Positions 1-39,537 of a stretch of DNA of 64,000 nt are shown here, one piece after another; positions within the stretch are counted from its first letter, which is position 1, and each line of letters opens with the position of its first letter. A program made the translations under genes and the position numbers. Where the stretch lies: NCBI GenBank assembly GCA_964016885.1, contig OZ024740.1:425444001-425508000 (forward strand), read 5' to 3'. Under the pieces are notes generated by a model. That model saw nothing but the letters and a program-made list of their open reading frames with translations, was not told where the DNA came from and did not search any database. This DNA is from Eledone cirrhosa (taxonomy: Eukaryota).

Positions 1-898
1 CTCCTTACTAAATTCTATAGAGACTACTCTAATCTCTCTTTTGAGAGATCCCCACCACCTGCTGTTGACGATGGCGCCCGTCAATCGCTCCTTAACTAAA
101 GTGCTAATCCGGTCCCTGTAAGCCCTACTTGCCGGTAAGGACAAGTTGAGCTTCCAGTAACCGGGTCCCTGTCTATGCATTCTGTCAAGATTGACCATGC
201 AGGTCACTAACTTGTGGTCTGAATAGCCAACCATGAGCATTTTTGGACAGCTTACAAAGTCCTTATCCTTATTTCTAACTAAGAACCTATCTAGGTACGG
301 TACGACCTAGATGATCCGCTGCGGTTTGCCCAAGTCCAGGTTGGCGCAGTCGGAAAATCTAATCGATATCTATCGGCCAGGTCAAATCGACCGATTAACC
401 CTTTGAGACTGTTAAACCCCTCTCTATCGGGACAGGCCCCTGCGTAGTCCCAACGTGCATCTAGGATACCATTCCAGTCCTCCACTAATAGCAAGGAGCG
501 GGACGTCCTCAGAAAAGTCTCCAGACGATGGAAGAAGTCTGGCCGCGTTGACCCGAAAGGGACGTAGACGGCTACCAGCCTAAACGCTCTGCCTTCATCA
601 CTGCCAAGGTCCAGAACCACTAGTCGACCCTTCGGGTCCAAATGTACGGTCTGTGTTGCGAGACCCAGATGTTTTTGCAGCAGAACGACAACCCCACCCC
701 ACCTCCGGGCTGACAGAGAGATGCGTGCATCTCAAAGTCATCAAAGGTGGGGGCCAGCTGTCGCACGTTGCTGATCCGGGCCTCGCAAATAACCATCACA
801 TCTATACGTTGTGACCTGAGGTCATTTAGAAGCATTGCTTGCTTCCAAGTTGAGCCCAGGCCACGCGCATTTAGACAGCCTACTCTTAGCATAGCCAT
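1..898 (-). pseudogene. Family A ORF2 N-terminal APE endonuclease domain; frameshifted
   Basis: ATG at 898 (MAMLRVGCLNARGLGSTWKQ); ORFs 620-922 and 291-641 are homologous to the other ORF2 copies in the window. Confidence 0.88.
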
Positions 899-922
899 GT
901 TGGTGGTGAAGATAAAAGGCAC

Positions 923-2937
923 CTACCTCTCTGCGTCCCGGGTATCGGGCTCTTCGTCTCCTGGGGACCAGGCTGCACAATTTCCATGGGGTGTTGGAGG
1001 GTATTTTTGATGGGGTGGTGGTTTCTCTTCGTCTCCTGGGGACCAGGCTGCACAATTTCCATGGGGGTGTTGGAGGGTTTTTTGGTGGGTTGGTGGTCTC
1101 TGGCGGGATGGGGACGGAGATGTTTGGTGGGGAGGGGGTGCGTCTGGGGTGTGAGTGTCTGGGTTGGGGGTGTGGAAACATTTCAAAAGGGCGCGGTTAT
1201 AGGGTTTGACGCAGGGGTTACCTACGTCGTTAGGAAATTTTTCCTTTAACTGTTTATGTGTGTCCATGGAGATCCTAATCATTTTAAGATTAGGATTCTC
1301 CGAATAGTGTGTAAAAGTTTTCCCTTCGGACTCCACCGAAGGGTTTTTATATATGGTGTCTGTTAAAGTTTTATTGTTAGAATTTATGTAGGTGTAATAT
1401 TTTTGTTGTGTTGTGTTTTTTTTTTCTGTGGTTCTTGTGTGTGTTTACGTTTTGTAGTAGGTGTTTTGTTTTCAGGAGGGGGTGTTTTTGTTTGTGCTGT
1501 TTGCGTCGCTTGTATTGGTGTTTGTGTGTTTGTTGCATTTTTGTTTGTGTTATGTCTTTTCTTTTTTTCTTTTTACTGGTCGGAAAGGCTCTCCCTCACC
1601 GTCACTGGGTGACGATGATGAGGCCTCATCCGTGGTGTTGGGGAGGAGTACATTTTGAGGAGCTGTGTGTGGGTGTTTCTGGAGTTGTTTTAGGTGGGGA
1701 GGGGTTGGGTGGGACTGTGTTTGCAGTTTGGTTTGTTTTTGTGTGTTGTTGTTGTGGTGGTTGTTGTTGTTGTTGTTGTGGTGGTGGTGGTGGTGGTTGT
1801 GTTGTTGTGTTGGGTGTCGGCAGTAGTGCATTTTTTTTATTGAAGTTAATTGAGGACAGGAAGCCCTCAGGTGACCACTGCTTAAACAGTGGTAACATGA
1901 AGGCCGCCTACCCTCAACAGAAATGTTTATGTAGGAATTTCCATCCAGAGGCACATGTTGTGGTATTCTAGCTATCCGTTCTGGTCTCATTTGGACCAGA
2001 ACTTCTAAGCTTGTACCGTTGAATATGACCCTGGAGGACTTTCCTACCGAAATTATTATGTCTTCATTAAAATTGATGAAACCAGCTATTATCCACCAGA
2101 TGTTTACATTTCGTGTGATGGTTGTTATTTTTATTTTTTGGCTCGTTTTTCCCATGTATGTGGGGAAAAAGGTGTAGAGCGGGGACACAATTGGCGACAC
2201 AGAATATTTCTGTGCCGTCAATTGGTCTTTCATTATTATTGATAAACTCCCGAAGAGTTTTCCCTTCTGTATGAAGGCAATGTCATTCATGGAGTTTCTT
2301 AGAACCAGTTCAATTTCGTTTTGAGTTAATTGAGCTGGTTTTCTGGTGGTATTTGAGATTGTCCTAAAAACTATGGTCTTCAGGACAGTGTCTCTACGCA
2401 ATTCTTGGGGAGAAGTGATGCTAAAAGCGCCATCCTCCCCAAAAGTTATATATTGCTTGGCATCTCTTAGCAATTCTCCGGCATTAGAAATGTCAATCTG
2501 TGTATATAGTTCTGTCTTTTAGACAGTTTGTGCAAACGAAACTTTTTTTCCTTGTTTGTGGAGTTGTTCTTGTTGGTGTTGTTGTCATTATTGTTGCTGT
2601 TGTTGGTGTTGTCATTGTTGTTGTTGTTGTTGTTGTTCTCAATTGCTTGATCTGTGGTTGCGGAATTCATTTGTGAAGTTGTGTTTTCGTTCATAGCATT
2701 GTTGTTATTGTTGTTGCTGGTGCCGCTGGTTATGCTGTTTTGATTTGTTGCCATGGCAACATCAAGTTGTCGGTCAGCAAGTGGAGAAAATTCTACCTCT
2801 GGCTGACCTTTGTCTTTGACATCTGCTACTATGACAGTGGCAGGGGGAAGCTGTAAGAATATCTTCCCCTTTCCACCTTCGAATGTTGGTGAAGAAACTT
2901 TAGCCCTTTTTTTTTTAAATGTTAGCTTTTCCCCCAA
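923..2937 (-). pseudogene. Family A ORF1 (Asn-rich N-terminus, RRM-like region, single CCHC zinc knuckle, Pro/Thr-rich tail); frameshifted
   Basis: ORF pieces 2467-2937, 1550-2473 and 923-1336; VEGRRPSCYHCLSSGHLRASC; 75-bp internal duplication encoding GNCAAWSPGDEE twice. Confidence 0.8.
2747..2760. promoter_or_regulatory. Perfect palindromic RFX X-box motif GTTGCCATGGCAAC in the family A 5' region
   Basis: Exact match to the canonical RFX palindrome, ~360 bp inside the element 5' end; also overlaps a candidate ORF1 ATG. Confidence 0.45.
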
Positions 2938-3120
2938 AAAAAAAAACTTTTATGTACTATTTCGCCTAAAGGTATAGAATATTTTGAGAGACTGACCAGA
3001 TCAAAATTTGACCTGGCAGTCCCTCTACAAGTTGATATAAAAATAAAGGTTCACAGTTAGGAATTTCGTTAGAAATTTAAGCAGAACTTACCCAGCAAGT
3101 TTCACGCGTGTGTCCATCCC

Positions 3121-3193
<73 letters not shown>
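3121..3193. repeat. (ATAG)n microsatellite between two minus-strand Tx1-like elements
   Basis: Direct reading. Confidence 0.98.
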
Positions 3194-3194
<1 letters not shown>

Positions 3195-4055
3195 TTCTTT
3201 ATTTGCCAAAAGGGCGTACAAAAATGGGACATTACAAGACCTGACGGCCGGGGTTTTACATAAAAATCATATAACTTTAACATTAATAAATAACAATAAA
3301 CTATATATAATAAAATAACTATTGAAATCCCCAATAGGAGGGAACGTTACTGCAGGGTTGTTTTACACCCCGTGGATAGAACAACCCTCAACACCAGGAA
3401 CACGTTTTGTAGGTGTTCCCGTCTTCCCTCTGTTTATCTTCCTCAACCTACATGTTTATATACAGAGAAGGCCCATTCACTCGGGCCATTTTCGCCACAT
3501 TCACCCACCTTTCAGCGAATTTACTGGGGTGTAGCCCCTCTCTCTCTCTCCACTCTCATCTTTAAGTACCATAGTCACCAGACAGAGGAAAACCTCCTTT
3601 CCTTAATTCTTAAATGAAGGCGGCGGTGTGATCCTCACGATGGACTCGACTGACACGTGACAGTAGCTGTTCGACATAATTCCTTAGGTCGGTCACCCCT
3701 GGGCACTGAACAATTGCGTGCAGAACAGTTTCGATGTCCTGCTCGCTTCTTGGACAGGTTCTTTTAGCAGGATCTCTGCCAGGGCGTCCGTGCCTGTAGA
3801 TTTTGTCTCGAACTGGTAGAGCTCCTCGGTAGCACTGTCAGGCCAGAGACCTCTGGAAGTTATCCATAGGCCCTAGACGGAAAGTCCTCCCGAATAGACG
3901 GGTCAGTTCGTCCTCCTCGATGCCTAGAGTTTCATCGAGAACGCCGTCGCACTTATCATACAATAATCCCCTAAAGAATGTCGAAGTGGAGTCTCCGCTG
4001 ATTGTCGTTTCCGCTAGGTAGAGGGCTGTGAGCGCCTGAAGGCACTAAGGGATTT
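3192..4055 (-). mobile_element. 5'-truncated Tx1-like element (ORF2 C-terminus plus 3'UTR), flanked on both sides by (ATCT)n
   Basis: Minus strand encodes MDNFQRSLA, ALPVRDKIYRHG, CPRS...ETVLHAIVQCP; ends AATAAAGAAATC followed by (TATC)n. Confidence 0.85.
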
Positions 4056-4153
<98 letters not shown>

Positions 4154-5399: not shown

Positions 5400-6770
5400 G
5401 ACACAAAGAGAATTACCAAACAGGTGTAAATATTTCCTGGGCTACTCGTGGCTAAACATTACAAAAAGCCTTTCTGCAATTGTCCCCCTCCAGTTTAGAG
5501 ATTTATACGCAGAACAGGCCCATTCACCCGGAATTTGCTAGCCCTTCTCACCCATCTTTCAGCACATTTGTTAGAAGGCAGCACTTTCCTCTCCACCCTC
5601 AATTTCCTTTTCAAGTAAAATTAGAAAAGGTTTTAAGAGCTTTCTCAAAGAATAAAGTGTCTGTCTTTAGCCCTTTGAATCTTGTCCTCTACTCAAACTT
5701 TTTTGTCTCAGCTACCAGAAAGATTAAAAAAATAATACCTGCACTTTCTTGCAAGAGGAAGCCGGCAGAATAATCTCCAGAATGGACTTAGCTGATGCCA
5801 GGATCTGTCCTAGTTGTGATAGCAACTGTTCGACATAATTCTATGCGGGCACTGAACGAGTACATGCAGGATAATTTCATTGCCCTCCGTGCATCTCGGA
5901 CTCTCACGGCAGACGAGATTTCCGTGCCTGTAGTGTTTATCCCGAACCGGAAACTCTCGACGCCCCCCCCCCCCCCCCCCCCCCTCCCCTGATAGCACTG
6001 TCAGACCAGTGATTTCTGGAAATTATCCATTGGCCCTGGACCATATTTACTTCGGAAAAGATTAGCCAGTTGATTTCCGTCGACATCCGCCTTCTTACGT
6101 CAACGAAACACTGAAGATCTCGCTATCTTGGAGCAGGTCTGCGCATCATTAGGTACGGCATACCTGTTCCTTCGCTTAGCTGGTGTTGTCAGCAAATGGA
6201 TCACCTGTCCAGGGGAACGCGTCCCTTCGACAAAATACGAAAGAGAATGCGTCCAACTTATGTCAGATGCGCAAACCTTGAGCGAGGTACTACGCCCAGG
6301 CAGTAATCTATGACTTATGCGATGTCGACACCTTAATTTGAACTTTCAGAGATAGGTTCCACTTTGCCTAACCTGCTCGTTACCTCATGCCAGTTATTTA
6401 CTACTTGGAGATCTAGACCTAAACCAGATCCCGAGCAATTTCGTGAAAGGTGCCCGTCCTGCGTTGCACGACACTTCTGGATCTCATAGAACTGCCCCTC
6501 CTGTCAGATCGATACTGATAAACCCGATATATTTAGTATCTAACACTACTAAGGTAACATCCTAGTGAACACAGGATTGTCGTCAATGCCTCTAATTTCT
6601 GCAGTTGTGATTCTTGAATCAGTTTATACCGAAGAGATGAGAGGAGATAGCCTTAATGGACAGCCTAAAGGGTTTAGAGAGGTGGCCATTTACTCCGACC
6701 GCTGAGCAAATGTCGCTGTACTTTGCAATAATATATCCCCTGAAATCTGAAGTCCGAAAACTGAAACCGA
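5400..6770 (-). mobile_element. Old degraded Tx1-like ORF2 3' half
   Basis: Remnants of VNGHLSKPF, LLGIWF, GPMDNFQKSLV, VRDKHYRHGN...LHVLVQCP are homologous to the younger copies. Confidence 0.8.
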
Positions 6771-7684: not shown

Positions 7685-7893
7685 TATTGGTTTCTGGACA
7701 GCAATATTGGGAGGAGGGCAAAGTCGATAAAATCGACTCCAGTGCGTAACTGGTACTTTATTTTATTGACCCTGTAAGGATGAAAGGTAAAGCTAACCTC
7801 GGCGAGATTTGAACGCAAAACGCAAAGGGCCGTAACTTTATGCCATAAAGCATGTTGTCTGACGCTCTACTGATACTGCTAATCCACCGCCCT
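7685..7893 (-). mobile_element. tRNA-derived SINE (older copy)
   Basis: Homologous to the SINEs at 27341 and 28180 (GGCGGTGGATT head, GTTCAAATC B box, CTTTCATCCTTAC body). Confidence 0.85.
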
Positions 7894-7909
7894 CACTCCT
7901 AAATATAAT

Positions 7910-8093
7910 TGTTTCTACTTTAGGCACAAGGCCAGCAATTACCCAGTGCATTACTGGTACTTTATTTTATCGACCACGTAAGGATGAAAGGCAAAGTCAA
8001 CCTCGGCGGGATTTGAACTCAGACCGTAAAGGGACGTAACTATGCCATAAAGCATGGCGTCCGACCCTCTACCGATACTGCCAATCCACCATA
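7910..8093 (-). mobile_element. tRNA-derived SINE (young copy) with 24-bp target-site duplication
   Basis: Near-identical to 28180-28360; flanked by ACCGCCCTCACTCCTAAATATAAT at 7886-7909 and 8094-8117. Confidence 0.9.
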
Positions 8094-8639: not shown

Positions 8640-11600
8640 TAGTGTTATAGGTGCTCTTCTTGTTGGTACTGCGTCTACTACTGCTGCTGCTGCTGCTGTT
8701 GTTATAGGTCGTCTTGTTGTTGGTACTACGTCTACTACTGCTGCTGCTGCTGCTGCTGTTGTTATAGGTCCTCTTGTTGTTGGTACTACGTCTACTACTA
8801 CTGCTGCTGTTGCTGCTGCTGTTGTTATAGGTCCTCTTGTTGTTGGTACTGCGTCTACTACTGCTGCTGCTGCTGCTGTTGTTATAGGTCCTCTTGTTGT
8901 TGGTACTACGTCTACTACTGCTGCTGCTGTTGTTATAGGTCCTCTTGTTGTTGGTACTACGTCTACTACTGCTGCTGCTGTTGTTATAGGTCCTCTTGTT
9001 GTTGGTACTGCGTCTACTACTGCTGCTGCTGCTGCTGTTGTTATAGGTCCTCTTGTTGTTGGTACTACGTCTACTACTGCTGCTGCTGCTGCTGTTGTTA
9101 TAGGTCCTCTTGTTGTTGGTACTACGTCTACTACTGCTGCTGCTGTTGTTATAGGTCCTCTTGTTGTTGGTACTGCGTCTACTACTGCTGCTGCTGCTGC
9201 TGTTGTTATAGGTCCTCTTGTTGTTGGTACTACGTCTACTACTGCTGCTGCTGTTGTTATAGGTCCTCTTGTTGTTGGTACTACGTCTACTACTGCTGCT
9301 GCTGTTGTTATAGGTCCTCTTGTTGTTGGTACTGCGTCTACTACTGCTGCTGCTGCTGCTGTTGTTATAGGTCCTCTTGTTGTTGGTACTACGTCTACTA
9401 CTGCTGCTGCTGCTGCTGTTGTTATAGGTCCTCTTGTTGTTGGTACTACGTCTACTACTGCTGCTGCTGTTGTTATAGGTCCTCTTGTTGTTGGTACTAC
9501 GCCTACTACTACTGCTGCTGTTGCTGCTGCTGTTGTTATAGGTCCTCTTGTTGTTGGTACTACGTCTACTACTACTGCTGCTGTTGCTGCTGCTGTTGTT
9601 ATAGGTCCTCTTGTTGTTGGTACTGCGTCTACTACTGCTGCTGTTGCTGCTGCTGTTGTTATAGGTCCTCTTGTTGTTGGTACTACGTCTACTACTGCTG
9701 CTGCTGCTGCTGTTGTTATAGGTCCTCTTGTTGTTGGTACTACGTCTACTACTGCTGCTGCTGTTGTTATAGGTCCTCTTGTTGTTGGTACTACGCCTAC
9801 TACTACTGCTGCTGTTGCTGCTGCTGTTGTTATAGGTCCTCTTGTTGTTGGTACTACGTCTACTACTACTGCTGCTGTTGCTGCTGCTGTTGTTATAGGT
9901 CCTCTTGTTGTTGGTACTGCGTCTACTACTGCTGCTGTTGCTGCTGCTGTTGTTATAGGTCCTCTTGTTGTTGGTACTACGTCTACTACTGCTGCTGCTG
10001 TTGCTGTTGTTATAGGTCCTCTTGTTGTTGGTACTACGTCTACTACTGCTGCTGCTGTTGCTGTTGTTATAGGTCCTCTTGTTGTTGGTACTGCGTCTAC
10101 TACTGCTGCTGTTGCTGCTGCTGTTGTTATAGGTCCTCTTGTTGTTGGTACTACGTCTACTACTGCTGCTGCTGCTGTTGTTATAGGTCCTCTTGTTGTT
10201 GGTACTACGTCTACTACTGCTGCTGCTGTTGTTATAGGTCCTCTTGTTGTTGGTACTACGTCTACTACTACTACTGCTGCTGCTGCTGTTGTTATAGGTC
10301 CTCTTGTTGTTGGTACTACGTCTACTACTGCTGCTGCTGCTGTTGTTATAGGACCTCTTGTTGTTGGTACTACGTCTACTACTACTGCTGCTGCTGTTGT
10401 TGTTATAGGTCCTCTTGTTGTTGGTACTATGTCTACTACTGCTGCTGCTGCTGTTGTTATAGGTCCTCTTGTTGTTGGTACTACGTCTACTACTACTACT
10501 GCTGCTGCTGCTGTTGTTATAGGTCCTCTTGTTGTTGGTACTACGTCTACTACTGCTGCTGTTGCTGTTGTTGTTGTTATAGGTCCTCTTGTTGTTGGTA
10601 CTACGTCTACTACTGCTGCTGCTGTTGTTGTTGTTATAGGTCCTCTTGTTGTTGGTACTACGTCTACTACTGCTGCTGCTGCTGTTGTTATAGGTCCTCT
10701 TGTTGTTGGTACTACGTCTACTACTGCTGCTGCTGCTGCTGTTGTTATAGGTCCTCTTGTTGTTGGTACTACGTCTACTACTGCTGCTGTTGTTGTTGTT
10801 GTTATAGGTCCTCTTGTTGTTGGTACTACGTCTACTACTACTGCTGCTGCTGCTGTTGTTGTTTTAGGTCCTCTTGTTGTTGGTACTACGTCTACTATGA
10901 CTGCTGCTGCTGTTGTTGTTGTTATAGGTCCTCTTGTTGTTGGTACTATGTCTACTTCTGCTGCTGCTGCTGTTGCTGTTGTTATAGGTCCTCTTGTTGT
11001 TGGTACTACGTCTACTGCTGCTGCTGCTGTTGTTATAGGTCCTCTTGTTGTTGGTACTACGTCTACTACTACTGCTGCTGTTGCTGTTGTTGTTATAGGT
11101 CCTCTTGTTGTTGGTACTACGTCTACTACTGCTGCTGCTGCTGTTGTTATAGGTCCTCTTGTTGTTGGTACTACGTCTACTACTACTGCTGCTGTTGCTG
11201 TTGTTGTTATAGGTCCTCTTGTTGTTGGTACTGCGTCTACTACTACTGCTGCTGTTGCTGTTGTTGTTATAGGTCCTCTTGTTGTTGGTACTACGTCTAC
11301 TACTGCTGCTGCTACTGTTGTTATAGGTCCTCTTGTTGTTGGTACTACGTCTACTGCTGCTGCTGCTGCTGTTGTTTTTATAGGTCCTCTTGTTGTTGGT
11401 ACTACGTCTACTACTGCCGCTGTTGCTGTTGCTGCTGTTATAGGTCCTCTTGTTGTTGGTACTACGTCTACTGCTGCCGCTGCTGCTGTTTTTGTTATAG
11501 GTCCTCTTGTTGTTGGTACTATGTCTACTACTGCTGCTGCTGCTGTTGCTGTTGTTATAGGTCCTCTTGTTGTTGGTACTACGTCTACTGCTGCTGCTGC

Positions 11601-14600
11601 TGTTGGTATAGGTCCTCTTGTTGTTGGTACTACGTCTACTACTACTGCTGCTGTTGCTGTTGTTGTTATAGGTCCTCTTGTTGTTGGTACTACGTCTACT
11701 ACTGCTGCTGCTGCTGTTGTTATAGGTCCTCTTGTTGTTGGTACTACGTCTACTACTACTGCTGCTGTTGCTGTTGTTGTTATAGTTCCTCTTGTTGTTG
11801 GTACTACGTCTACTACTGCTGCTGCTGCTGTTGTTGTTATAGGTCCTCTTGTTGTTGGTACTACGTCTACTGCTGCTGCTGCTGTTGTTATAGGTCCTCT
11901 TGTTGTTGGTACTACGTCTACTACTACTGCTGCTGTTGCTGTTGTTGTTATAGGTCCTCTTGTTGTTGGTACTACGTCTACTACTGCTGCTGCTGCTGTT
12001 GTTATAGGTCCTCTTGTTGTTGGTACTACGTCTACTGCTGTTGCTGCTGCTGTTGTTGTTATAGGTCCTCTTGTTGTTGGTACTACGTCTACTACTGCTG
12101 CTGTTGCTGTTGCTGCTGTTATAGGTCCTCTTGTTGTTGGTACTACGTCTACTACTGCTGCTGCTGCTGTGTTATAGGTCCTCTTGTTGTTGGTACTACG
12201 TCTACTACTGCTGCTGCTGCTGTTGCTGCTGTTATAGGTCCTCTTGTTGTTGGTACTACGTCTACTACTGCTGCTGCTGCTGTTGCTGCTGTTATAGGTC
12301 CTCTTGTTGTTGGTACTACGTCTACTACTGCTGCTGCTGCTGTTGTTATAGGTCCTCTTGTTGTTGGTACTACGTCTACTACTGCTGCTGCTGTTGTTGT
12401 TGTTGTTATAGGTCCTCTTGTTGTTGGTACTACGTCTACTGCTGCTGCTGCTGCTGTTGTTGTTATAGGTCCTCTTGTTGTTGGTACTATGTCTACTACT
12501 GCTGCTGCTGCTGCTGTTATAGGTCCTCTTGTTGTTGGTACTACGTCTACTACTGCTGCTGCTGCTGTGTTATAGGTCCTCTTCTTGTTGGTACTACGTC
12601 TACTACTACTACTGCTGCTGCTGCTGTTGTTATAGGTCCTCTTGTTGTTGGTACTACGTCTACTACTGCTGCTGCTGCTGCTGCTGTTGTTATAGGTCCT
12701 CTTGTTGTTGGTACTACGTCTACTACTGCTGCTGCTGTTGTTGTTGTTATAGGTCCTCTTGTTGTTGGTACTACGTCTACTACTACTACTGCTGCTGCTG
12801 CTGTTCTTATAGGTCCTCTTGTTGTTGGTACTATGTCTACTACTGCTGCTGCTGCTGTTTTTATATGTCCTCTTGTTGTTGGTACTACGTCTACTACTGC
12901 TGCTGCTGCTGCTGTTGTTGTTGTTATAGGTCCTCTTGTTGTTGGTACTACGTCTACTACTGCTGCTGCTGCTGTTGTTGTTGTTATAGGTCCTCTTGTT
13001 GTTGGTACTACGTCTACTACTGCTGCTGCTGCTGTTGTTATAGGTCCTCTTGTTGTTGGTACTACGTCTACTACTACTGCTGCTGCTGCTGCTGTTATAG
13101 GTCCTCTTGTTGTTGGTACTACGTCTACTACTGCTGCTGCTGTTGTTGTTGTTATAGGTCCTCTTGTTGTTGGTACTACGTGTACTACTGCTGCTGCTGC
13201 TGTTGTTGTTGTTATAGGTCTTCTTGTTGTTGGTACTACGTCTACTGCTGCTGCTGCTGCTGTTGTTATAGGTCCTCTTGTTGTTGGTACTACGTCTACT
13301 ACTGCTGCTGCTGCTGTTGTTATAGGTCCTCTTGTTGTTGGTACTACGTCTACTACTGCTGCTGCTGCTGTTGTTATAGGTCCTCTTGTTGTTGGTACTA
13401 CGTCTACTACTGCTGCTGCTGCTGCTGTTGTTATAGGTCCTCTTGTTGTTGGTACTACGTCTACTACTGCTGCTGCTGCTGCTGTTGTTATAGGTCCTCT
13501 TGTTGTTGGTACTACGTCTACTACTGCTGCTGCTGCTGCTGTTGTTATAGGTCCTCTTGTTGTTGGTACTACGTCTACTACTGCTGCTGCTGTTGTTGTT
13601 GTTATAGGTTCTCTTGTTGTTGGTACTACGTCTACTACTGCTGCTGCTGTTGTTGTTGTTATAGGTTCTCTTGTTGTGTGTACTACGTCTACTGCTGCTG
13701 CTGCTGTTGTTGCTGTTGTTATAGGTCCTCTTGTTGTTGGTACTACGTCTACTACTGCTGCTGCTGCTGTTGTTGTTGTTATAGGTCCTCTTGTTGTTGG
13801 TACTACGTCTACTACTGCTGCTGCTGTTGTTGTTGTTATAGGTCCTCTTGTTTTTGGTACTACGTCTACTACTACTACTGCTGCTGCTGCTGTTCTTATA
13901 GGTCCTCTTGTTGTTGGTACTATGTCTACTACTGCTGCTGCTGCTGTTGTTATAGGTCCTCTTGTTGTTGGTACTACGTCTACTACTGCTGCTGCTGCTG
14001 CTGTTGTTGTTGTTATAGGTCCTCTTGTTGTTGGTACTACGTCTACTACTACTGCTGCTGCTGCTGCTGTTATAGGTTCTCTTGTTGTTGGTACTACGTC
14101 TACTACTGCTGCTGCTGTTGTTGTTGTTATAGGTCCTCTTGTTGTTGGTACTACGTCTACTACTGCTGCTGCTGCTGCTGTTGTTATAGGTCCTCTTGTT
14201 GTTGGTACTACGTCTACTACTGCTGCTGCTGCTGCTGTTGTTATAGCTCCTCTTGTTGTTGGAACTACGTCTACTACTGCTGCTGCTGCTGCTGCTGCTG
14301 TTGTTATAGGGCCTCTTGTTGTTGGTACTACGTCTACTGCTGCTGCTGCTGCTGCTGCTGTTGTTATAGGTCCTCTTGTTGTTGGTACTACGTCTACTAC
14401 TGCTGCTGCTGTCGTTGCTGTTATAGGTCCTCTTGTTGTTGGTACTACGTCTACTACTGCTGCTGCTGTTGTTGTTGTTATAGGTTCTCTTGTTGTTTGT
14501 ACTACGTCTACTACTGCTGCTGCTGTTGTTGCTGTTATAGGTCCTCTTGTTGTTGGTACTACGTCTACTACTGCTGCTGCTGTTGTTGTTGTTATAGGTT

Positions 14601-18546: not shown

Positions 18547-18585
18547 GGTAAGTGGTCTTTCCCATCTTTTCCACTCCATTTCAAC

Positions 18586-21427: not shown

Positions 21428-21464
<37 letters not shown>

Positions 21465-23689: not shown

Positions 23690-23721
23690 ACCTTTCCTCT
23701 CTCTCTTTTTAACCTGCCAAC

Positions 23722-27790: not shown

Positions 27791-28179
27791 TGTCCAGGAA
27801 ACCATTCTCTTTACAACAGAGGCTTTATGCCTATTTAAGAAATAATAATATTGTCGATTTCTTTTATTTCTACATGGATGACGAATGGGAGACATTAAAT
27901 AATGATAATATTAAAACCAATACCAACGATAACAACAATAACAACAATAACAACAACAACAATGACAATACCAAAAATATTATTAATAATGAAATTAACA
28001 ACAACGAAAACAAAAACATCACCAATATTATTGTAAATAGTAAAACTAACTACAACAGCAATAATAACGCCAATATTATTATTAATAATAAAATTAACAA
28101 GAGCAAGAATTGTAACAAAAGTAACAACAACAATAGCACCACCAGCAACAACAACCACAATGCCAATATTATTATCAAT

Positions 28180-28360
28180 GGTGGATTGGCAGTATCGGTA
28201 GAGGGTCGGACGCCATGCTTTCCAGCATAGTTACGTCCCTTTACGATCTGAGTTCAAATCCCGCCGAGGTTAACTTTGCCTTTCATCCTTACGGGGTCGA
28301 TAAAATAAAGTACCAGTAATGCACTGGGTAATTGCTGGCCTTGTGCCTAAAGTAGAAACA
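28180..28360 (+). mobile_element. tRNA-derived SINE with 12-bp target-site duplication
   Basis: Same family as 27341; ATTATTATCAAT at 28168-28179 and 28361-28372. Confidence 0.9.
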
Positions 28361-28762
28361 ATTATTATCAATAACAACAATAACACCAACAACACCAATA
28401 ACACCAATAACAACAATAACACCAACAAAACCAACCACAACAATACCAATATTATCATTAATAATAACATTTACAACAACAACAACAACAATGGCAACAG
28501 CAATAACAATGATTTCTTTATTAACCACAAGGGTTTACATAAAGTAGACATTAAGGACAGTGCGGGACAATACAGGACGGTACAAAGGGGCATTTCTGCG
28601 TGTAAAAAAACAAAAACAGAGAATGTAACAAAAAAATAACAATGAAAAATTCCCCAATAGGGGGGAGACTTCGGAGGGACAATTGTGGATAAAGCCCAGT
28701 AAAAGGCCACAGTGACCCTGACCACCAAGGCAAGTGCCCTCTCCCAATTTTCCACCTTTAAT

Positions 28763-31700
28763 TTACAGATACATACTCAGAGTAGGCCCATTCACTCGGC
28801 CATTCTTGCTTCTCTCACCTATCTTTCAACAAAATGCTGGGAAGAGAGCACTTCCCTCTCTACTCTGATTTTCCTTTTCAAATGAAATTTGAAAAAGTCA
28901 ATCAGGGCATCACCGAAGAGGTAAGTGCTCGTCTTCAGCCCTTTCAAACGTGTCCACCATACTATCTCTTTCGCCATGGCCACCAGACAGATAAAAACTG
29001 TCTGCCCTTCCCGGCTAAAGGAAGAGGGCGGGGCAATCCTCACGATGGACTCAGCTGATAGCTGGATCCGTCCTACACGCGACAGCAGGTGTTCGACATA
29101 AACCCACAAGTCAGCAATGCGCGGACACTGGACGAGTGCGTGCAGGACGGTTTCGTCACCCTGCGCGCATCTCGGACATGCCCGGCTGACAGCACCTCCA
29201 TGCCTGTAGAGTTTATCCCGAACTGGCAAAGATCCTCAGTAGCACTGCCAGGCCAGTGATTTCTGGAAGTTGTCCATAGGCCCCGGCCCGAAAGTCCTTC
29301 CGAAGAGATTGGCTAGTTGATTTTCGTCGACGCCTAGAGTTTCCCCAAGTACGTCGTCGCTCTTCTCCTCCACTAATCCTCTATAGAACGCCGAGGTAGA
29401 GTTTCTACCGATCACATTGCCCGATTGGTCGAGGGCTGTGAGCGCCTGAAGAGATTCCAGTCTCCAAGCGCTCCCTCTCGGTCTTCGCTTGACCCAGGAC
29501 TGCAGCTCCGTCAAGGAGACGAGCTGGGGAAATACGTGTCTAGCAAACGGCGACCACACCTGATCACCGTCGAAGAAGAGTTGCAGATGTCGTAGCCTGA
29601 GCGCGTGTCTGCCCATCATCAGCCACGGCATGCCCAGCCCTCCACGTAGCGGGTGATGACAACAGATGGACCACCTGACCATCAGAGCGCGTCCCTTCCA
29701 CAAAAAGCGAAAGAGCAAACGCTCCAGCGCAGTCAGGCGGGGCTTAGGACAAGGTACGACGGTCAGGCGGTAGCAAATGACAGACGCGATGTACGCGTTA
29801 GCCACCTCCGCTCGACCTTTCAGGGATAGCTGCCTCTCCGCCCATTTTTGGGTGAAAGAAGCCACACTGCTCGTCACCTCGTCCCAGTTTTTGTCCGTCT
29901 GGAGGTCCGGACCGAACCAGACCCCTAGCAATTTAACCGGTCCGTCCGTCCAGCGTCCGACGACGCTGTTGGACGGCATGGACCTGCTTCTCCAGGTGCC
30001 GAGCTGCAGGCCCACTGACTTTTCCTGGTTGATCATTGCTCCTGTCACCGCTTCGTATTCTCTTAGTGTAGTGCCGATCGCATCGATGTGTTTGGAGTTC
30101 GACACCACTACGGTGAGATCCTCCGCATATGCTTACACGAATCTTCCGCATCCTAGTTCGCGCATGACGCCCCTCAACGTCTCCAGTTTGTGCAGTAATG
30201 GCTCGAGAGTCGATACCTACAAGAAGGACGAGAGGGGACATCCTTGGCGGACCGAGCGCATGATGTTGAACGGTTCCGAAAGGTGACCGTTCACTCTCAC
30301 CACAGAGCAGATGTCGCTGTCCATGGCAGCGATCCAGCCTCTGAAGACGGGCCCGAAGCCAGCCGCCCTCAGGACGGCCGCTCGGTAACGATGGTCGACC
30401 CTATCGAAAGCTTTCGACTGATCTAAATTGATCAAGGACCCACCCGTGCCAGGTTCCCTAGCTACCCTCTCTACGATGTATCGCATGAGGTTGACGTTGT
30501 CGTGGATGGATCTGTCGGGAATGGCGCATGTCTACGCCTCTCCTACCAGACCACCAACGCCAAGCACCAACCTCTTTGCTAGCACCTTGGCCAAAATCTT
30601 GAACTCTGTGTTTAGCAGAGTTATGGGCCTGAAATTATCTATGTTATCCCCCTTGTTCAGATCCTTTCTCACAGTGCCACCGCTCCTCGGCTCACAGAGC
30701 TGGGAATCCCCCCGTTCTGTTGCCAGTTGCAGTAGACGACCGCCAAGAGGCTTCCGAACAAGTTTGGCATCTGTACGTAAAGTTCATAGGGCAGACCATC
30801 CAAACCAGGCGATTTACCCTTTGTGCAGCCAGTCATTGCCTCCCGTACTTCAGCGGCTGTTATCGGCTTTTCGCAACACTCCGCCTCAGTGGCCGAGAGC
30901 CGCGGCAGTCCGTTGAGGTAGACACTAAAGTCCATCCCTCGTCCCGGCCCACCGCTGCCCCCGAACTTCTGAGCGAAGTGTCGCTGAAAAGCTTCACACA
31001 TTTACCCGGGATCGAGTAACATGCGCCCGTCGTTGTCCACCAAAGACCGGATCGTGGCTTTGTTCCCACAACGCTCCTCCGCCAATCGGGCCCATTGAAC
31101 GGCTTTCGTCCCCTCGTGTCTGAGAGCAGGCACCCTAGCTCTGACAACGCAGCCTTCGTGATTTGCATTGAAGAATTGGTCAAGGGCCAATTTTACCGCA
31201 AGTACGTCGGTCGCGATGCCTTTGCTAAGCGCCTCGTCTAATTTTCTAACTAGTTCTCCCTCTGCTCTATTTTTCTCTATTGCTAAAGCCTTACTAAACC
31301 TAATGGACTCTTCTAATCGTTCTTTTCAGAGCAAACCACCACTTGTTGTTGACGATGGCCCCGTCAACGCCCGCTTAACTAGTTCGCTAATCCGGTCTCT
31401 GTAGGCCTTACGCGCCGGTAAGGACGCGTTTAGCTTCCAGTAGCCGGGTCCTCGTCTATGAAGCCTATCTAAGTCAAGCACACAGATCACGAATCTGTGG
31501 TGCGTATAGCTGATTATCTTGAATTGTGAACAGCCTATGCTAGACCTATCTATTTCCGTACAAAATACTCTATCTAGATATGATCTGGATGACCCTATGC
31601 GATTTGTCCAAGTCCACATTGGCACATTCGGGAAATCCAATCGGTACCTGTCAGACAGTTCAAAACGCCTGAGCAGGTTGGTGTGGCTCTTGCACCCTCC

Positions 31701-32175
31701 TCCCCTATCCGCTAATCCCACACAGTCCCAGCGTGCATCTAAGATCCCGTTGCAGTCGCCCACTAACACTAAAGAGCGGGACGTTCCAAGAAAGGTCTCC
31801 AGACGCCGGAATAAATCAGGGCGCTCTGCTCCTGTCGGGGCATAGACGGCCACTAGCCTGAAAGCTTGCCCGTCTCCGCTGGTCACGTCCAGCACCACCA
31901 ACTTACCCTCTGGGTCCAGGAAGATGGCCCGTATGGCGAGATCCAAACCTCACCGAAAAAGCACAGCAATTCTCCCCCGATCCAGGACGGCTGGGAGATG
32001 CGTACACATCGTAGCCGCCGAAGATCGGTGCGAAGGCCCGTGCTTCGGAGATTCTGGTCTCGCTGATGGCCACTACGTCAATGTTTAGTGACCTGAGGTC
32101 GTTGAGCAGGTGACCCTGCTTCCATGACGACCCCAAGCCACGTGCATTTATGCTGCCTATTCTGAGTGAGGTCAA
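28763..32175 (-). pseudogene. B' ORF2 (APE-RT-Cys motif); frameshifted, start codon reads TTG
   Basis: ORF pieces 31903-32175, 31326-31946, 30669-31001, 30217-30486, 29236-30108 and 28819-29229 (CPRCAQGDETVLHALVQC). Confidence 0.92.
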
Positions 32176-32214
32176 GTTGAAATGGAGTGGAAAAGATGGG
32201 AAAGACCACTTACC

Positions 32215-33828
32215 TTACTTTTCGTAGAGGAAGTATGGTTTCTCCATCCCTTTTTCACATGATCGTCTGGTGAAGGGACCGTTGAATCGTCCCTTCGGCT
32301 GGTCGTCGGTTCTTCTATGAGTATGTCCGAATATACTCACCGGTTGAGAGTCCCTCCTAGGTCTCTGAAATCACCAACTGCTTTGGGGAATTTCGTTTTA
32401 ATGTTTGTGTATTGTTTCTGTGCTATTCTTACCAGTCTTAAGTTCGTTGGTGTTTTGATTGGTGCTGGTATTATGTAGTCGTGCTGTGAAATGTCTGTGT
32501 GTTCAATTATGTAAGTTATTAGTTTCTTGTTGTGTGTATTTATTGCCGTACATTTGTTTTTCTGGGGGTGGGGGTGGTTCTGCTATTTTCTTGTCGTTGT
32601 TGCTGGGTGTGTGTGTTTTGTTGTTGTGTTTGCGATGTTGGTGCTTGTGGTGGTGGTGTTGAAGGTGTTGTTGTTGTTGGCGGAAGGGTTGTCGCCGGTG
32701 GTGATGGTGTTGGTGGTGTTGCTGCTGTGAGTCTCTTTGCAGTAGCCTTTACCTTTTTTCATTTCTTTCCTCCCTTTTCGAAGGCGACGATGCACTGCTT
32801 CTGCGTTTGTGCCCATTTGCGACCTTTTGCCATCCCTCTCTCACCTCACACTCCATGTCTGATTCTGTGAGGTCGGGGAGAGGTACCAGCTCCACTCTTT
32901 CACTTGTTGTTGTTGGTGATGTTTGCAGTGGAGTCTCTGTTGCAGCTGCAGTTGGTTTTACAGTTGTTGTTGTTAATACTTCCACTGCTGTTGCTGTTCT
33001 TGATTTCCGTGGCGTGGGTATGGGTGCCACGGACCTATCGTTCCTCGTTGCCGCTTGTCCTGTTGCTGGTAGCAGTGGAGCCGGTTTCGGAAGGAGGGGT
33101 TTTCTCCTTTCTCAGGGTCTTCTCGTTGCAGAAGGCCCTGAGTTGAGTCTTCGATTCACAGCGAAAGCATTTCGGGCGTTTGCCCTCAACACTTATGGGC
33201 AGTTGAGTGCCGTTATCGAAGTCTATCACATCCGGGATAGCTTCAATGCACTCCTGGTTGGTTTGGATTAACATCTCAATGGAGGTGCCGACCCAATCTT
33301 CTGTTACTTTTTCTGTACTTGCAGTATAGTTGTTTTGTCCTCGATTCCGACGAGGACAGACGCGGCCAGCCAAGAAGGGGCCATCCCGGGGGGGGGGGGG
33401 GGGGACGTGGGTCAGTTTGACTCTCACAATTTTTTGCCCGCAGTAGGAGGGCACCAACACCATTTCCTCGTTCCTTAGAGTCACTAAGGATTGAGCCTTT
33501 GCCTCCTGGGGTGTGGCAAAAAGCACGTCTACGGTGGTATATTTCTTGCCTCGGGTGATATGCGTTTTCCGCTGCCACACAGACCCTAAGGCTTTTTGTA
33601 TTTGAGCCTCTGTGGCTCTTTCAACCCTACGGGATTTTGTGCTTAGTGTACGGTACGTGACCGTACAGTGCTGTTGGGTTTCAAAAAATGTTTCGGCTGC
33701 CTTGCAGATTGCTCGGTGTCCGGTTTTTGTCACCATCTTCTTTGCTTCCTGTAATTCCTCATTTGTTATGAGGATAGTTTCCAGGTTCTTTACGTTACCT
33801 GCAAACGAGATTGGTTTTTCTTTGCTGC

Positions 33829-33879
<51 letters not shown>

Positions 33880-34350
33880 CATCAGAGCTGCTGTTCTTTT
33901 GTTGTTGCTGCAGGTACTACAACTACTGCCGCCGCCGCTGTTGCTGTGGTTGTTGTTGTTGTTGCTGCTGCTGCCGTTGTTGTTGCTGTTGCTGCTAATG
34001 CTGTTGTTGTTTATGCTGCTGCTGATGCTGTTGCGGCTGCTACTGTTGTTTTCCTTGTCAGTGTTGCTGCTGCTGCTGCTGCTGTTATTACGGCTGCTAC
34101 TGCTATTATTCATGACGTCAGACGAATGAAATGGGTTTTCGTATTTACCGCACACATTTTTCGTCGTTGTCGTCGTCGTGGAGAAATGTTCCATGTTTTG
34201 CACGTGATTTTGGAAACTATTTTTCTTTACTGGCGTCGCTTGCGTAAGAGAAGGGAGGGAGAGAGACAATCTTCTCTCTGCTGTAGTGACGATTGAGGAA
34301 GAAGACGGAATGAGTGGAAGTGACTTGTGAAAATTCTTTTTTGTAGCCAT
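32215..34350 (-). pseudogene. B' ORF1 (Ser/Asn-rich N-terminus, degenerate CCHC knuckle); frameshifted
   Basis: VEGKRPKCFRCESKTQLRAFC; LVPSYCGQ shared with the B ORF1. Confidence 0.8.
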
Positions 34351-34858
34351 TTTTTGGGGGGGGGTTTCAAATAAATATTGGGCACAAAACCCCAATAAGC
34401 AGTTATTTAACCCCGAAGGGCCAAATAACGGGCAGAAAGACCCCTCTCACGAGGAGGAGGGTGTTTTGTCTACAGTTTGGTTAAAGTTTTAAACAATTTA
34501 CAATTGTTATAGCGGTCAAAATTTACAATACTTTACAGAGACGAGCCTCCGTCAACCATGGCATTCAATAATAATAATAATAATAATAATAATGATTTCA
34601 TTTATTGGCCACAAGGGCCGACATATAGGGGACAATACAAAAGACTGGGACAGTGGGTTTTTACAGAAAAATCGAGTAAACAATATGAATAACAATACCA
34701 AAGTAACAATAACCAAGTAACAATACAATAACAAGAAAATTACAACAAGAAAAAATTCCCCACCTAGGGTTCGCTCAAGTACCCCACCAGTCCTGAACGA
34801 CCCGACGCTTCGAGAGCACCCTGGAAGGGCACGCTTCTCCTCCTCAAATTTACCTACC

Positions 34859-37800
34859 TACAGCCGCATGAACAGAGTAGGCCCACTCACACGGGCCATT
34901 CTCGCCACATTCAACCACCATTCAGCAAATGTACTGAGGGGCAGCACTTCTCTCTACACCCTCACCTTCCTTTCCAAGTGAAACTTGAAAAAGTTGATGA
35001 GGGATTGGCCGAAGAGAAAGTGTCTGTCTTCAGTCCTTTCAACCTCGTCAACGATACAACCTCTGTCGCTACAGCCACCAGACAGAGGAAAATCGCCTGC
35101 CCTTCCTGGCCTAAAGAAGGCGGCGGGTCGATCTTCACTATGGACTCGGCCGATAGCCGGATCCGTTCTACACGCGACAACAGCTGTTCAACATAACTCC
35201 ACAAGTCAGTAATGCACGGACACTGGACGAGTGCGTGCAGAGAGGTTTCGTCGCACTGCGCGTATCTCGGGCAGGTCCGTCTGACAGCACTTGCGTGCCT
35301 GTAGAGTTTATCTCGAACCGGCAAGCCCCCCCCCCCCCGGTAGCACTGCCAGGCGAGGGATTTTTGGAAATTATCCATCGTCCCTGGCTCGAAAGTCCTC
35401 TAGTACAGACTGGTTAGTTCGAATTCGTTGACTCCCAGAGCTTCTCCGAGTGCATCGTCGCACTTGCCCACCACTAATCCTCGATAGAACTCGATAGTGG
35501 AAGTTCCACTGACCGCATTGCCTGCCTGGTAGATCGCAGTGAGTGCCTGGCAGCATTCCAGATGCCAATCACCCAGTCTCGGTCTTTTCTTGACCCAGGA
35601 CTGCAGCTCAGTCAAAGAAACGAGTTGCGGAAAGGCCCGTCTGACAAACGGCGACCACACCTATTCACCGTTTAGGCAGAATATCTGGAGATGCCGCAGC
35701 CTCAGCACGTGCCTGCGCATCATTAGCCACGGCATGCCCAGCCCTCCACGTAGAGGGTGCTGGCAGCAGATGGACCGCCTCACCAGCGGAACCTGACCCC
35801 TCCACAAGAATTTGAACAGGAGCCGCTCCATGATGACGAGGCGCGAACGAGGGCAAGGGACGACGGTCAGACGGTAGTAGATGACGGACGCGATGTACGC
35901 GTTCGCCACCTCCGCCCGACCTTTCAGTGATAGCTTCATCCCAGCACATTTCTGGGTGAGACTGGCTACCCTGCCCGTCACCTCGTCCCAATTATTATCC
36001 ACCTGGAGGTCTGGCCCGAACCAAACCCCTATTAACTTTACCGGTCCGTCCGTCCAGCGCCTAACGACGCTATTGGACGGCATGGCCTTGCCTCTCCAGG
36101 TGCCGAGTTGCAAGCCCACCGACTTTTCCGGGTTAAGTTTTGCTTCCGTCAACCTTTCATATTCCTCCAATAAGTTGCCGACCACGTCGATTTCTGAGGT
36201 GTCCGACACCATCACGGTGATGTCGTCCGCAGAAGCCGACACAGCCTTTCCGCATCCCGGGTCGAGCGGGATGCCCTGCAACAGCTCCAGCTTCCGCAGT
36301 AAAGGCTCGAGAGTCAATACGTACAGAAGGTAGGAGAGAGGGCACCCTTGACGGACCGATCGGGAGACCTGAAACGGTTCCGAGAGGTGGCCATTAATTT
36401 TGACCATCGAGCAGGTGCAGCTATGCATTGCAGCGATCCAGCTTCTGAAGACGGGGCCGAAGCCAGCCGCCTCGAGGACAGCCTCCAAGTACCGATGGTC
36501 GACCCTATCGAATGCTTTCGATTGATCTAAATTGATCAGAGCACCACCGTAGCCAGGTTTTCACCATACCCTCTCTATGATGTATCGCATTAGGTGGAGG
36601 TTGTCGTGTATGGACCTGGTTGGGATTGCGCAAGTTTGCGCCTCCCCAACCAAATCCCCGACGACAAGCGCCAACCTCTTCGCTGACACCATGGCCAAAA
36701 TCTTAAACTCTGTGTTGAGCAGAGTTATGGGCCTGAAATTGTCTAATGAATCCCTCTTGTTCTCGTCTTTCCTTATCAGCGTCACTACGCCCCAGCTGAC
36801 AGAACTGGGAATACTCCCGTTTTGCTGCCAGTTGCAGTAGAGGGCTTCGAGGAGATTGGAGAACAAGTCTGGCATATTTACGTAAAGCTCGTAGGGCAGA
36901 CCATCCAAACCGGGTGACTTGCGCCTCATGCAGCCGACAAGGGCATCCTGAATGTCGGCTGAAGTAATTGGCCTTTCGCAGCGCCCAGCGTCAGCCGTCG
37001 AGAGTTGCGGCAAGCCATCGAGGTAGGGACTGAAGTCCGCCACCATCTCTGACCCGCCACTTCCCCCGAACAACCGAGCCAAATGTTGGCGAAAGGCCTG
37101 ACACATCCTCTTGGAATCGCTCAGCTCGTGCCCGTTTCGGTCCGTCAAAGACCGAATCGTGGTTTTATTACCACGCTGCGCCTCTGCTACGCGGGCCCAT
37201 CGAACAGCTTTGGTTCCCTCGATTCTCAGAGCACGCGCCTTAGCTCTGACAATGCAACCTTAGTGTTTCGCATTGAAGAAATGGTCTAATGCCATTCTCG
37301 GCGCTAACACGTCAGTTGCAATGCCACTACCAATAGCCTCGTCTAACTGATCTACCAACTCCCCCTCCTTTCTATTTTTCTCTAACGCTACCTCTTTGCT
37401 AAACTCTATCGACATTACTCTAATCTCTCTTTTGAGAGCCCCCCACCATCTATTGTTGACGACTCCCCCTGTCAACGTTTTCTTAACTATATTGTTGACC
37501 TGGTCCCTGTAACCCTTACGTGCCGGAAATGACATGTTTAGCTTCCAGTAACCAGGTCCTAACCTACGCGTCTTATCTAGGTCGACCATACTGATCACAA
37601 AGATCTGAATAGGCGACCGTTTCAAAACGTGGACAGCTTACACTATTTCTGTCTATTTTCCTAATGAATATCCTGTCTATATACGATCTAGATGACCCTA
37701 TGCGGTTAGCCCAGGTCCACACTGGCGCATTAGGGAAATTTAGTCGGTACCTGTCAGACAGTTGTAACTGGCTGATCAGGTTCTTGAGGCTTTTGCACCC

Positions 37801-38137
37801 CCCGCTCCTATCGGATACTCCCACACAGTCCCAGCGTGCGTCTAAGATGCCGTTCCAGTCCCCCGCTAACAGTAAAGGGCGAGACGTACCCAGAAAGGCT
37901 TCCAGGCTTCTAAAGAAGTCCGGCCGTCCTGCCCCAGTAGGAGCATAGACGGCCACCAGATGCAAAGATCTGATATTCGTCGAAAATGGGGGCTAGTGCG
38001 CGCGTGTCGGAAATCCTGGTCTCGCTGTCGGCAATTACATCTATTTCTATAGACCTGAGGTCGTTGAGCAGGTGACCCTGCTTCCAGGATGATCCCAGGC
38101 CTCGAACATTTAAACATCCTACTCTTAATACGGCCAT
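34859..38137 (-). pseudogene. C' ORF2 (APE-RT-Cys motif); disrupted
   Basis: MAVLRVGCLNVRGL; RT motif reads SADD instead of YADD; ~145-bp deletion in the APE domain. Confidence 0.9.
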
Positions 38138-38169
38138 GTTGGCAGGTTAAAAAGAGAGAGAGGAAGGTT

Positions 38170-39302
38170 TACTTACCTTCCAGGCTCTTGTGAAGGTCGG
38201 GTTGTTTGACCTCCATAGTTGGTGGCGTTTCTTTTGGGAACCCCTTTAAAAGTCTTGAAGTGGGTTTTACGTTCGGGGTCCCACGTCCCGAGGAAAGCTG
38301 TCTCGTATTTCTTGGAATATATCGAGCGACATTCGCACCAGAACCAAATCTTCCGGCACGCGAAATGTGCTCGATTTAAAAATTTCCCCCTTTTTTTGTA
38401 TATTTTCACTTCGTGCTACGAGGGCCATCAGTTCCTTGCTGGCCCTCCTGACGAGCACGAAGTTTTGTATGTTTTTTTGGTGTGATTTTATTTGTTTGCG
38501 TGGATGTGTTGGTGATGGTTTTGGTGGTGTTGTTTCGGTTGTATCTGTGTTTGTTGTGAGTGTGGTGTCTGTGGTTTCAGATGTTTGTGTGTATATTTGT
38601 TCTTGCGTCTGTTTAGGTTGTTTGCGTTTGGGGGATTCTGGTGTTGGTGATGGTGATGGTGGTGTTGATGTTGGTGTTATTGGAGAGATGTTTGCGTGGG
38701 TGGTGTCTGAGTTTTTTATTGTGGGTGATTTTGTGGTTTGTTGAGTTTTTTTTTTCTTTTTGTGTTTCCTCTTTTGGGATTTTGGGGGATTTTGGTTTTC
38801 CCTCATCTTCACTACTGGTAGATGAGGGATCTGTGTCTGTAAGTGTGTCTGTATGTATGTTTATGGTTTTATTGGTGTGTGTATTTTGGGGTGGACGGGG
38901 AATTTGACAGCTTTCCTCGTTTCCCCACTGGGTGGTCAATGTTGGTGGTGGTCTTTCTATTGGTGTTGTTGTTGGTGGTTTTGCCGGTGCTGGTGTTGGT
39001 TGTGGTCCTCGCCCCGGCGTCGGCAGCAGTGGAGCCTTTCGACCCCTTGCATCTTTCAGCAGTTGAGGGCAGAATGGTCGCAAATGGGTTTTTTCCCCAC
39101 AAACAAAACACTGCGGCCTTTTGCCTTCGGTCATATTGTGAATGACCGTCCCATTCTGAAGGCGGATGTGGTCCGGGATTGTCTTCACTTTCTCGGGTCT
39201 GATCTGGAGAAATATGTTTTAATTTCGCTGTAGCGCTCTTCTCAACTTCTACGTCGATGTCGCACGACAGCCGACATATTGCTGGGGGGCGTGGCTCAGC
39301 GA
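38170..39302 (-). pseudogene. C' ORF1 with a ~870-bp internal deletion
   Basis: Sequence jumps from the equivalent of C ~21757 to C ~22618; retains CFVCGEKTHLRPFC. Confidence 0.8.
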
Positions 39303-39537
39303 TGTTTTTTTTTCTTCGTAAATTTTTTAACGTAAAAAATATTTCAAATATTTGGGCCAAAAGGCCCAAATATTATACTTTCCCCTTCACGGGGCAAAGT
39401 CAAAGGGCCTTATATCCCTTACACAACAAGAAATATTTAACAACAAATAATTTTAACAGGCAAATAAAGCGACTTACTGTGAGCGAGCAAAATACGTCTG
39501 ATTAGACCAATAATAATAATAATAATAATAATAATAA

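Follow-up and report, generated by a model that had tools for sequence, protein, structure and literature searches.

L1/Tx1-group LINEs at (ATT)n and (ATCT)n microsatellites in Eledone cirrhosa: target or tail?

Introduction

Long interspersed elements (LINEs) stand head to tail in a 64,000-nucleotide (nt) stretch of the Eledone cirrhosa genome, with simple repeats between them. This stretch (GenBank assembly GCA_964016885.1, contig OZ024740.1, positions 425,444,001 to 425,508,000, forward strand) is referred to here as the window. Is the repeat at each junction the target into which the element was inserted, or only a tail that the element carries with it? If it is a target, is it read by the endonuclease of the element or by the tail of its RNA? 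The first question can be answered with some firmness. That the repeat is a target and not only a tail, as a reading of the sequence alone had proposed, is well supported, because truncated copies with many different breakpoints adjoin the repeat of their own group far above background and never that of the other group. The second question is discussed below with the evidence on both sides.

The Elements and Tracts of the Window

Six LINE copies were delimited in the window by self-comparison and Pfam. They carry remnants of the apurinic/apyrimidinic endonuclease-like (APE), reverse transcriptase (RT) and zf-RVT domains, and their open reading frames (ORFs) are broken in all copies. On the sense strand of each element, the junction repeat reads ATT or ATCT. 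Coordinates are those of the window:

1-3120, minus strand: A1, 5' half of a full-length ATCT-group LINE with the ORF2 of family E4 and an ORF1 nearer to that of E5; it continues past the window's left edge and ends there in an ATCT tract
3121-3194, minus strand: (ATCT)n tract, (AGAT)n on the plus strand, serving A2 as its 3' tail and A1 as its 5' flank
3195-4046, minus strand: A2, member of ATCT family E1, truncated at the 5' end and lacking a small internal stretch; it matches the profile of its family at 91-95%
4056-4087, minus strand: (ATCT)n tract, (AGAT)n on the plus strand, preceding A2 at its truncated 5' end
16517-16549, plus strand: (ATT)11 at the 5' junction of B, after the 3' end of a short interspersed element (SINE) copy
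16550-21430, plus strand: B, copy of ATT family B with both ends kept and three internal deletions
21431-21464, plus strand: (ATT)11 separating B from C
21465-27302, plus strand: C, near full-length copy of ATT family C with APE, RT and zf-RVT remnants
27303-27337, plus strand: (ATT)n at the 3' end of C
28510-34566, minus strand: B', full-length, with the ORF2 of B and another 5' untranslated region (UTR) and ORF1; its 3' flank is a degenerate ATT/GTT run
34567-34593, minus strand: (ATT)9 separating C' from B', (AAT)n on the plus strand
34594-39508, minus strand: C', copy of family C with two internal deletions
39509-39537, minus strand: (ATT)n at the 5' junction of C', (AAT)n on the plus strand, common to C' and a Dong-like element on the opposite strand

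The tracts named in the sequence-only reading are all present, although the one reported as ATT/GTT-rich at 28510 is merely the degenerate run in the 3' flank of B'. That reading also placed two ATCT elements at 1-4055. They are indeed bounded by ATCT, but they belong to different families, and the chain does not end with them: beyond the ATCT tract of A1, to the left of the window, lies a third, 5'-truncated E1 copy. About 9 bases without alignment separate A2 from the tract at 4056.

Could the cluster be one inverted segmental duplication of a B-C block? The copies are similar enough, on opposite strands, with B and B' about 91% alike and C and C' about 92%. The similarity of B and B' begins only at about 18505, however, and their 5' UTR and ORF1 differ, each ORF1 type being found at other loci with the same ORF2 and 3' end. 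The internal deletions of C and C' are not the same, the order is B-C on the plus strand and C'-B' on the minus strand, and each window copy is 91-97% alike to its own family profile. A single duplicated block was ruled out by the different ORF1 types and the order, and its probability is vanishingly small. The copies are independent insertions, as had been proposed from their order.

Families Across the Genome

The genome (3.0 Gb) was searched with the ends of the elements. Each search gave 1108-3343 first-look candidates, of which the best 40 were scored and 30 fetched, so that the samples favour copies resembling the query. Clustering of 3' ends and of 120 longer regions defined the ATT families B/B', C and D and the ATCT families E1, E2/E5, E3 and E4, each LINE family being present in many copies genome-wide. 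Intact natural ORF2s were found in the ATCT group (L278, L283 and L284) and open APE frames in ATT-group copies (L238, L248, L274 and L275). The 3' end of family B with an AAT run was also found on 1 and 23 contigs of the sequencing runs X5 and X6, which carry other organism labels and are not used as evidence of range.

Exchange of the ORF1/5' UTR part is a recurrent pattern. Between the profiles of B and B', ORF2 is 99% alike, and ORF1, where it can be aligned, about 65% (window 16550-18500 versus 32300-34566; loci L231-L250). E2 and E5 likewise share ORF2 with distinct ORF1s, and A1 combines an E4 ORF2 with an E5-like ORF1. Chimeras between families were also seen (B-C, D-C and E1-E3; L008, L350, L359 and L322), always inside one target group among the loci seen. 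They could have arisen by template jumps at the 5' junction or by deletions between stacked copies. Two pairs of neighbouring loci, L102/L103 and L147/L148, are near-identical, which suggests that blocks containing LINEs were duplicated locally in tandem, or doubled in the assembly.

Target or Tail

The junctions were counted in a census of the last 30 bases before each copy having a 3' end, at all loci. Copies cut by a locus edge (21 in the ATT group, 19 in the ATCT group), chimeras (3 and 5) and interrupted copies (1 and 3) were left out. The group's own repeat precedes 45 of 46 full-length copies in the ATT group and 20 of 23 in the ATCT group; the single ATT miss is the untrimmed 5' start of the family D profile. 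The register of full-length ATT junctions is exact: the first base of the element follows TATT in 34 of 36. With the window copies included, full-length 5' ends adjoin the repeat of their group in family C (30/30), in B (30/30) and in B' (22/22 among the matches listed, of 30). Those of A1-type copies lie at ATCT in 30 of 30 as judged by eye, some of the runs being short or degenerate. At the other end of the elements, the repeat is found in 95 of 110 3' flanks in the ATT group and in 107 of 121 in the ATCT group.

Full-length 5' junctions of this kind could also be explained with no targeting at all. The repeat would then be an element-encoded tail, and copies would accumulate passively in repeat-rich regions or carry an upstream repeat, in which transcription had started, along in the transcript. 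The truncated copies stand against this. Their 5' junctions have their own repeat in 23 of 39 cases in the ATT group (59%) and in 50 of 71 in the ATCT group (70%), compared with 152 of 5900 random 30-mers for ATT (2.6%) and 37 of 5900 for ATCT (0.6%). In the window DNA outside the elements, the corresponding counts are 114 and 20 of 3928. The repeat lies on the sense strand, the opposite-strand repeat occurring at 1 of 39 truncated ATT junctions and 0 of 71 truncated ATCT junctions, and the repeat of the other group was found at none of the 85 5' junctions of the ATT group and none of the 94 of the ATCT group. Since truncated junctions are specific for strand and group, the absence of targeting is already largely refuted as an explanation. 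Of 54 pairs in which a neighbour lies within 150 nt upstream, 53 stay inside one target group, mostly joining different families; the lone exception looks like a mis-assigned 48-nt fragment.

Several observations weigh against targeting in its strict form. Copies that came to light because they lie next to another copy are over-represented in the census. In a counter-sample restricted to copies sampled by their 3' end, ATCT was found at 18 of 29 truncated E1 copies; one of the misses, L286, is probably another ORF1 type rather than truncated. Family B (n=29) gave 13 full-length copies, all at ATT, 15 truncated copies and 1 unresolved, and only 7 of the 15 truncated copies have a clear ATT run. 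Family C (n=29) gave 18 full-length copies, all at ATT, 3 chimeras with B or D, and 8 truncated copies of which only 1 has ATT. The low rate in C counts against strict targeting. The repeat is absent from 7 of the 8 truncated copies in C and from 11 of the 29 in E1, which favours the view that nothing is targeted. The claim that every intact junction lies in a repeat accordingly holds for full-length copies only: a clear ATT run remains at just 8 of the 23 truncated ATT-group copies in this counter-sample.

Part of these misses may have another origin. Of the eight truncated B copies without a clear run, four lie at the 3' end of a SINE, or close to one, that has lost its ATT tail in part or entirely; the other four have no repeat. 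Among truncated ATT copies, ATT is kept in 15 of 20, 5 of 10 and 3 of 9 as length rises, and more than 150 nt are missing internally from 27 of 69 full-length-anchored copies. Because retention falls with length and such losses are frequent, later deletions may explain the low rate in truncated C. Taken together, targeting by enzyme or by tail is highly probable, and its complete absence is improbable.

The Insertion Site and Its Other Users

What does the target look like? Target-site duplications (TSDs) are readable only where the flank has unique bases and are invisible in pure repeat. TSD-like matches were found in 12 of 110 truncated copies (one likely spurious), compared with 48 of 2462 mismatched pairs, and informative TSDs in 0 of 69 full-length copies. 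Clear TSDs start at ATTA in the ATT group and at or within TATCT in the ATCT group, which points to a short target core, ATTA or TATCT, as far as the duplicated bases can tell. The LINEs themselves end with AATAAA a few bases before the repeat and without poly(A).

The ATT tracts are not used by these LINEs only. Further elements with ATT or AAT tails lie in the window:

7738-8092: SINE copy or copies
27338-27535, plus strand: SINE with an ATT tail, oriented as the ATT-group LINEs
28178-28365, plus strand: second SINE copy with a 12-nt TSD beginning ATTA
39537-39838, plus strand: 3' end of a 5'-truncated LINE of the restriction-like endonuclease (RLE) type (Dong/R4-like), with an AAT tail, head-to-head with C' across one tract

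The 3' end of the SINE resembles the LINE 3' end at 15 of 21 positions by eye. Informative TSDs of 10-20 nt were found in 32 of 108 SINE copies, compared with 38 of 3000 controls, and 27 of the 32 begin with ATTA; these copies were taken from loci gathered for LINEs, so that the sample is biased to ATT-rich places. The SINE is likely mobilised by the ATT-group LINEs. It is abundant, is also found inserted within LINE copies, and resembles an octopus SINE.

The Dong-like element uses the ATT-group tracts from the other strand. Its copies have AAT at the 3' end in 51 of 52 cases, and 15 of the 52 lie tail-to-tail with an ATT-group LINE at loci partly chosen through those LINEs. A PD..D-type motif after a CCHC-like motif, which we take to mark an RLE, is visible in a longer copy, for which Pfam gave weak matches only.

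Classification

The elements are APE-RT LINEs of the L1/Tx1 group. Domains PF03372, PF00078 and PF13966 are present in the intact natural ORF2s of L278 and L284, and the domain scan of these two ORF2s gave no match to an RNase H family. The anatomy is that of LINEs, with variable 5' truncation along the element, a 3' tail, TSDs, and no terminal direct repeats in self-comparison. There are two ORFs, the first with a CCHC knuckle in 8 of 8 family profiles and the second of about 1140 amino acids. This combination, together with the lack of RNase H, is what we take to be the mark of the L1/Tx1 group. The predicted structure of the APE domain (predicted local distance difference test score, 81) matches L1-EN with an E value of 3e-17. 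Its best matches are L1-EN and the loop grafts of L1-EN (LTx graft), and L1-EN structures rank above TRAS1-EN.

Membership in the Tx1 clade is likely, an assignment made from anatomy. Protein database searches returned no homologue bearing a Tx1 name, the closest named protein being one of Argonauta hians (66% over the RT region). In these families one sequence type occupies more than 20% of flanks, the threshold by which target-specific families are recognised in the relevant part of PMC4494074. The junction repeats are ATT or ATCT and do not match (TC)n and (TTC)n, the targets of Kibi and Koshi.

A Probable Switch of Target

That related families have ATT and ATCT specificity was a further proposal of the sequence-only reading. 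Junctions in each group's own repeat bear it out, but flanks cannot tell the specificity of the endonuclease from pairing between RNA tail and primer. How did the two groups come to differ? Trees of the family profiles show one change of target (support 100/100). With closer outgroups and outside APE, C groups with the ATCT families (86/99, and 99 in the Shimodaira-Hasegawa-like approximate likelihood ratio test, SH-aLRT), and a B+C+D clade, that is, ATT monophyly, is rejected by the approximately unbiased (AU) test (p-AU 0.0007 and 0.0006). The ATCT lineage is thus likely nested inside ATT lineages, with ATT ancestral by parsimony on these trees.

C is closer to E1 in RT (86% identity, versus 80% to B) and closer to B in APE (74%, versus 70% to E1). 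Columns separating the two groups make up 41 of 238 in APE and 81 of 899 elsewhere (1.9-fold, p=0.0006), the E2 profile being excluded from APE trees and column counts owing to its faulty APE start. Among ten splits the target split gives the highest enrichment in APE, the others giving 0.46-1.8-fold. By sequence alignment, group-specific residues lie at the tip of the hairpin loop (Ile versus Ser/Thr) and in the loops matching Asn118 and Lys70. All three are DNA-contact elements of L1-EN, according to the part of PMC8565326 that treats them. As a separate observation, APE is 92% identical between B and D and the rest of ORF2 82-88%, which suggests exchange of APE or strong constraint on it.

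These results are not without difficulties. The trees are rooted through long branches and by outgroups without assigned targets, and the APE tree neither supports nor rejects C with the ATCT families (p-AU 0.27). The E4 branch alone shows a 1.8-fold APE enrichment (p=0.006), and the ten splits are uncorrected. The two groups form one contrast and differ by descent as well as by target. The mapping to L1-EN residues was made at about 20% identity, and loop grafts into L1-EN failed to transfer specificity in the experiments described in part of PMC1950540. The APE residue differences, read from alignments, are therefore suggestive only of a tie to the target.

Could it be mainly the tail that selects the target? 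The endonuclease would then nick loosely at T-purine steps, pairing of the ATT or ATCT RNA tail would largely decide the site, the switch would be a change of tail, and the APE differences would be drift. The conserved part of the site (ATTA or TATCT) is the one expected to pair with the tail, the other side of the inferred nick being weakly constrained. A short ATTA match suffices for SINE insertions, and E1 copies retain an ATCT-like end even where the flank is another repeat. The failed loop grafts agree with this as well. Against it, the APE of C remains ATT-like in an ORF2 that otherwise groups with those of the ATCT families, the target split tops the APE enrichment, B and D show reduced APE change, and Tx1L-EN is specific in vitro (reported in part of PMC1950540). 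Among the loci examined, no copy combines the APE of one group with the tail of the other. Selection led by the tail is rather unlikely on balance.

The explanation we consider probable is a young radiation in which the endonuclease nicks a short repeat core and the DNA end so released likely pairs with a tail of matching RNA, enzyme and tail acting together with a change in the enzyme. The bottom strand would be nicked after TAAT in the ATT group or AGAT in the ATCT group, a T-purine step in both; this position is read from where the duplications begin. The transcript would pass AATAAA and take in one repeat unit or a few; these would pair with the primer, so that poly(A) would not be copied. 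The duplication would come from a further nick, 10-20 nt downstream. Repeat would be left on both sides, where subsequent insertions from any family in that group could land. Mixed head-to-tail chains would follow, because the LINE end with its tail recreates the preferred site. The ATCT branch would have arisen once from ATT-targeting ancestors, through changes of the tail and of those endonuclease loops that face the DNA.

A more specific version is possible and held only tentatively: a single reprogramming from ATT to ATCT through few changes in the APE DNA-facing loops together with a change of RNA tail, each branch building its own landing pads and the ATT pad being shared with the SINE and the opposite-strand Dong-like element. 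If this is true, the two branches would be a near-minimal natural pair defining an APE recognition code.

Other Repeats of the Window

Three further features of the window stand apart from the chains:

5477-6501 (about), minus strand: fragment of a related LINE, older and diverged (66-68% identity), ending without visible repeat
8643-14892: 57-base-pair (bp) minisatellite with a (CTG)n core and about 109 copies; several of its frames are open, and it is unrelated to the LINEs
44338 to window end: 46-bp satellite of at least 427 copies, beginning where the stop codon of a decayed LINE of the RLE type ends (region 43400-64000)

The unit of the 46-bp satellite resembles the last ~45 nt of the 3' UTR of the same RLE LINE family, as seen in 7 further copies with 75-84% across the junction region. 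Because of this resemblance, the array likely grew out of a LINE 3' end.

Comparison With Known Systems

How LINE APE endonucleases gain or change sequence specificity is described as poorly understood in the part of PMC3812793 on this subject. Here, sister families with APE domains 60-70% identical have different and cleanly separated targets, so that enzyme and RNA tail can be tested against each other directly. The comparison has a bearing on site-specific insertion tools, and helps to explain the joint growth of microsatellites and LINE stacks in large cephalopod-like genomes.

The microsatellite-targeting lifestyle is already known. No ATT- or ATCT-targeting Tx1 family was found reported in searches of openly readable papers, and Repbase or the supplements of PMC4494074 may list such targets. 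In octopus, L1-Tx1 and Dong-R4 are given as abundant or active in parts of PMC13282606 and PMC8967140, the former listing both as recently active in Octopus vulgaris; the relevant parts of these papers give no target analysis.

Dong, an RLE element of the R4 clade, targets TAA repeats, and DongBg is found in a snail (both from part of PMC3812793). It shares its microsatellite with the ATT group, and a Dong-like element occurs here. Unlike the ATT-group LINEs, it has another class of endonuclease and uses the opposite strand. SART1/TRAS1, Waldo and Mino of the R1 clade are APE LINEs that insert into short tandem repeats; SART1 requires few repeat units, and its priming depends on the poly(A) tail (passages of PMC7265360 and PMC3812793). 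The copies described here are of another clade than SART1 and end in the target repeat without poly(A). Xenopus Tx1L has an endonuclease that is sequence-specific in vitro (part of PMC1950540). Its APE is of the same broad group, the fold predicted here being nearest to L1-EN and the LTx loop graft, and sequence specificity is a trait of Tx1L; unlike the present LINEs, Tx1L targets a DNA transposon and no microsatellite.

The nearest systems are Kibi at (TC)n and Koshi at (TTC)n in teleosts and the crocodilian Tx1 families in (TTCC)n/(TTTC)n, microsatellite-specific families described in parts of PMC4494074, PMC3812793 and PMC4640811. Like them, the LINEs of E. cirrhosa are APE-type elements that favour a microsatellite, with related families using different repeat units. 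They differ in that the units are ATT and ATCT and not pyrimidine-only. They also differ in that both groups are young, high-copy sister branches within one invertebrate genome, joined by a rooted single change of target.

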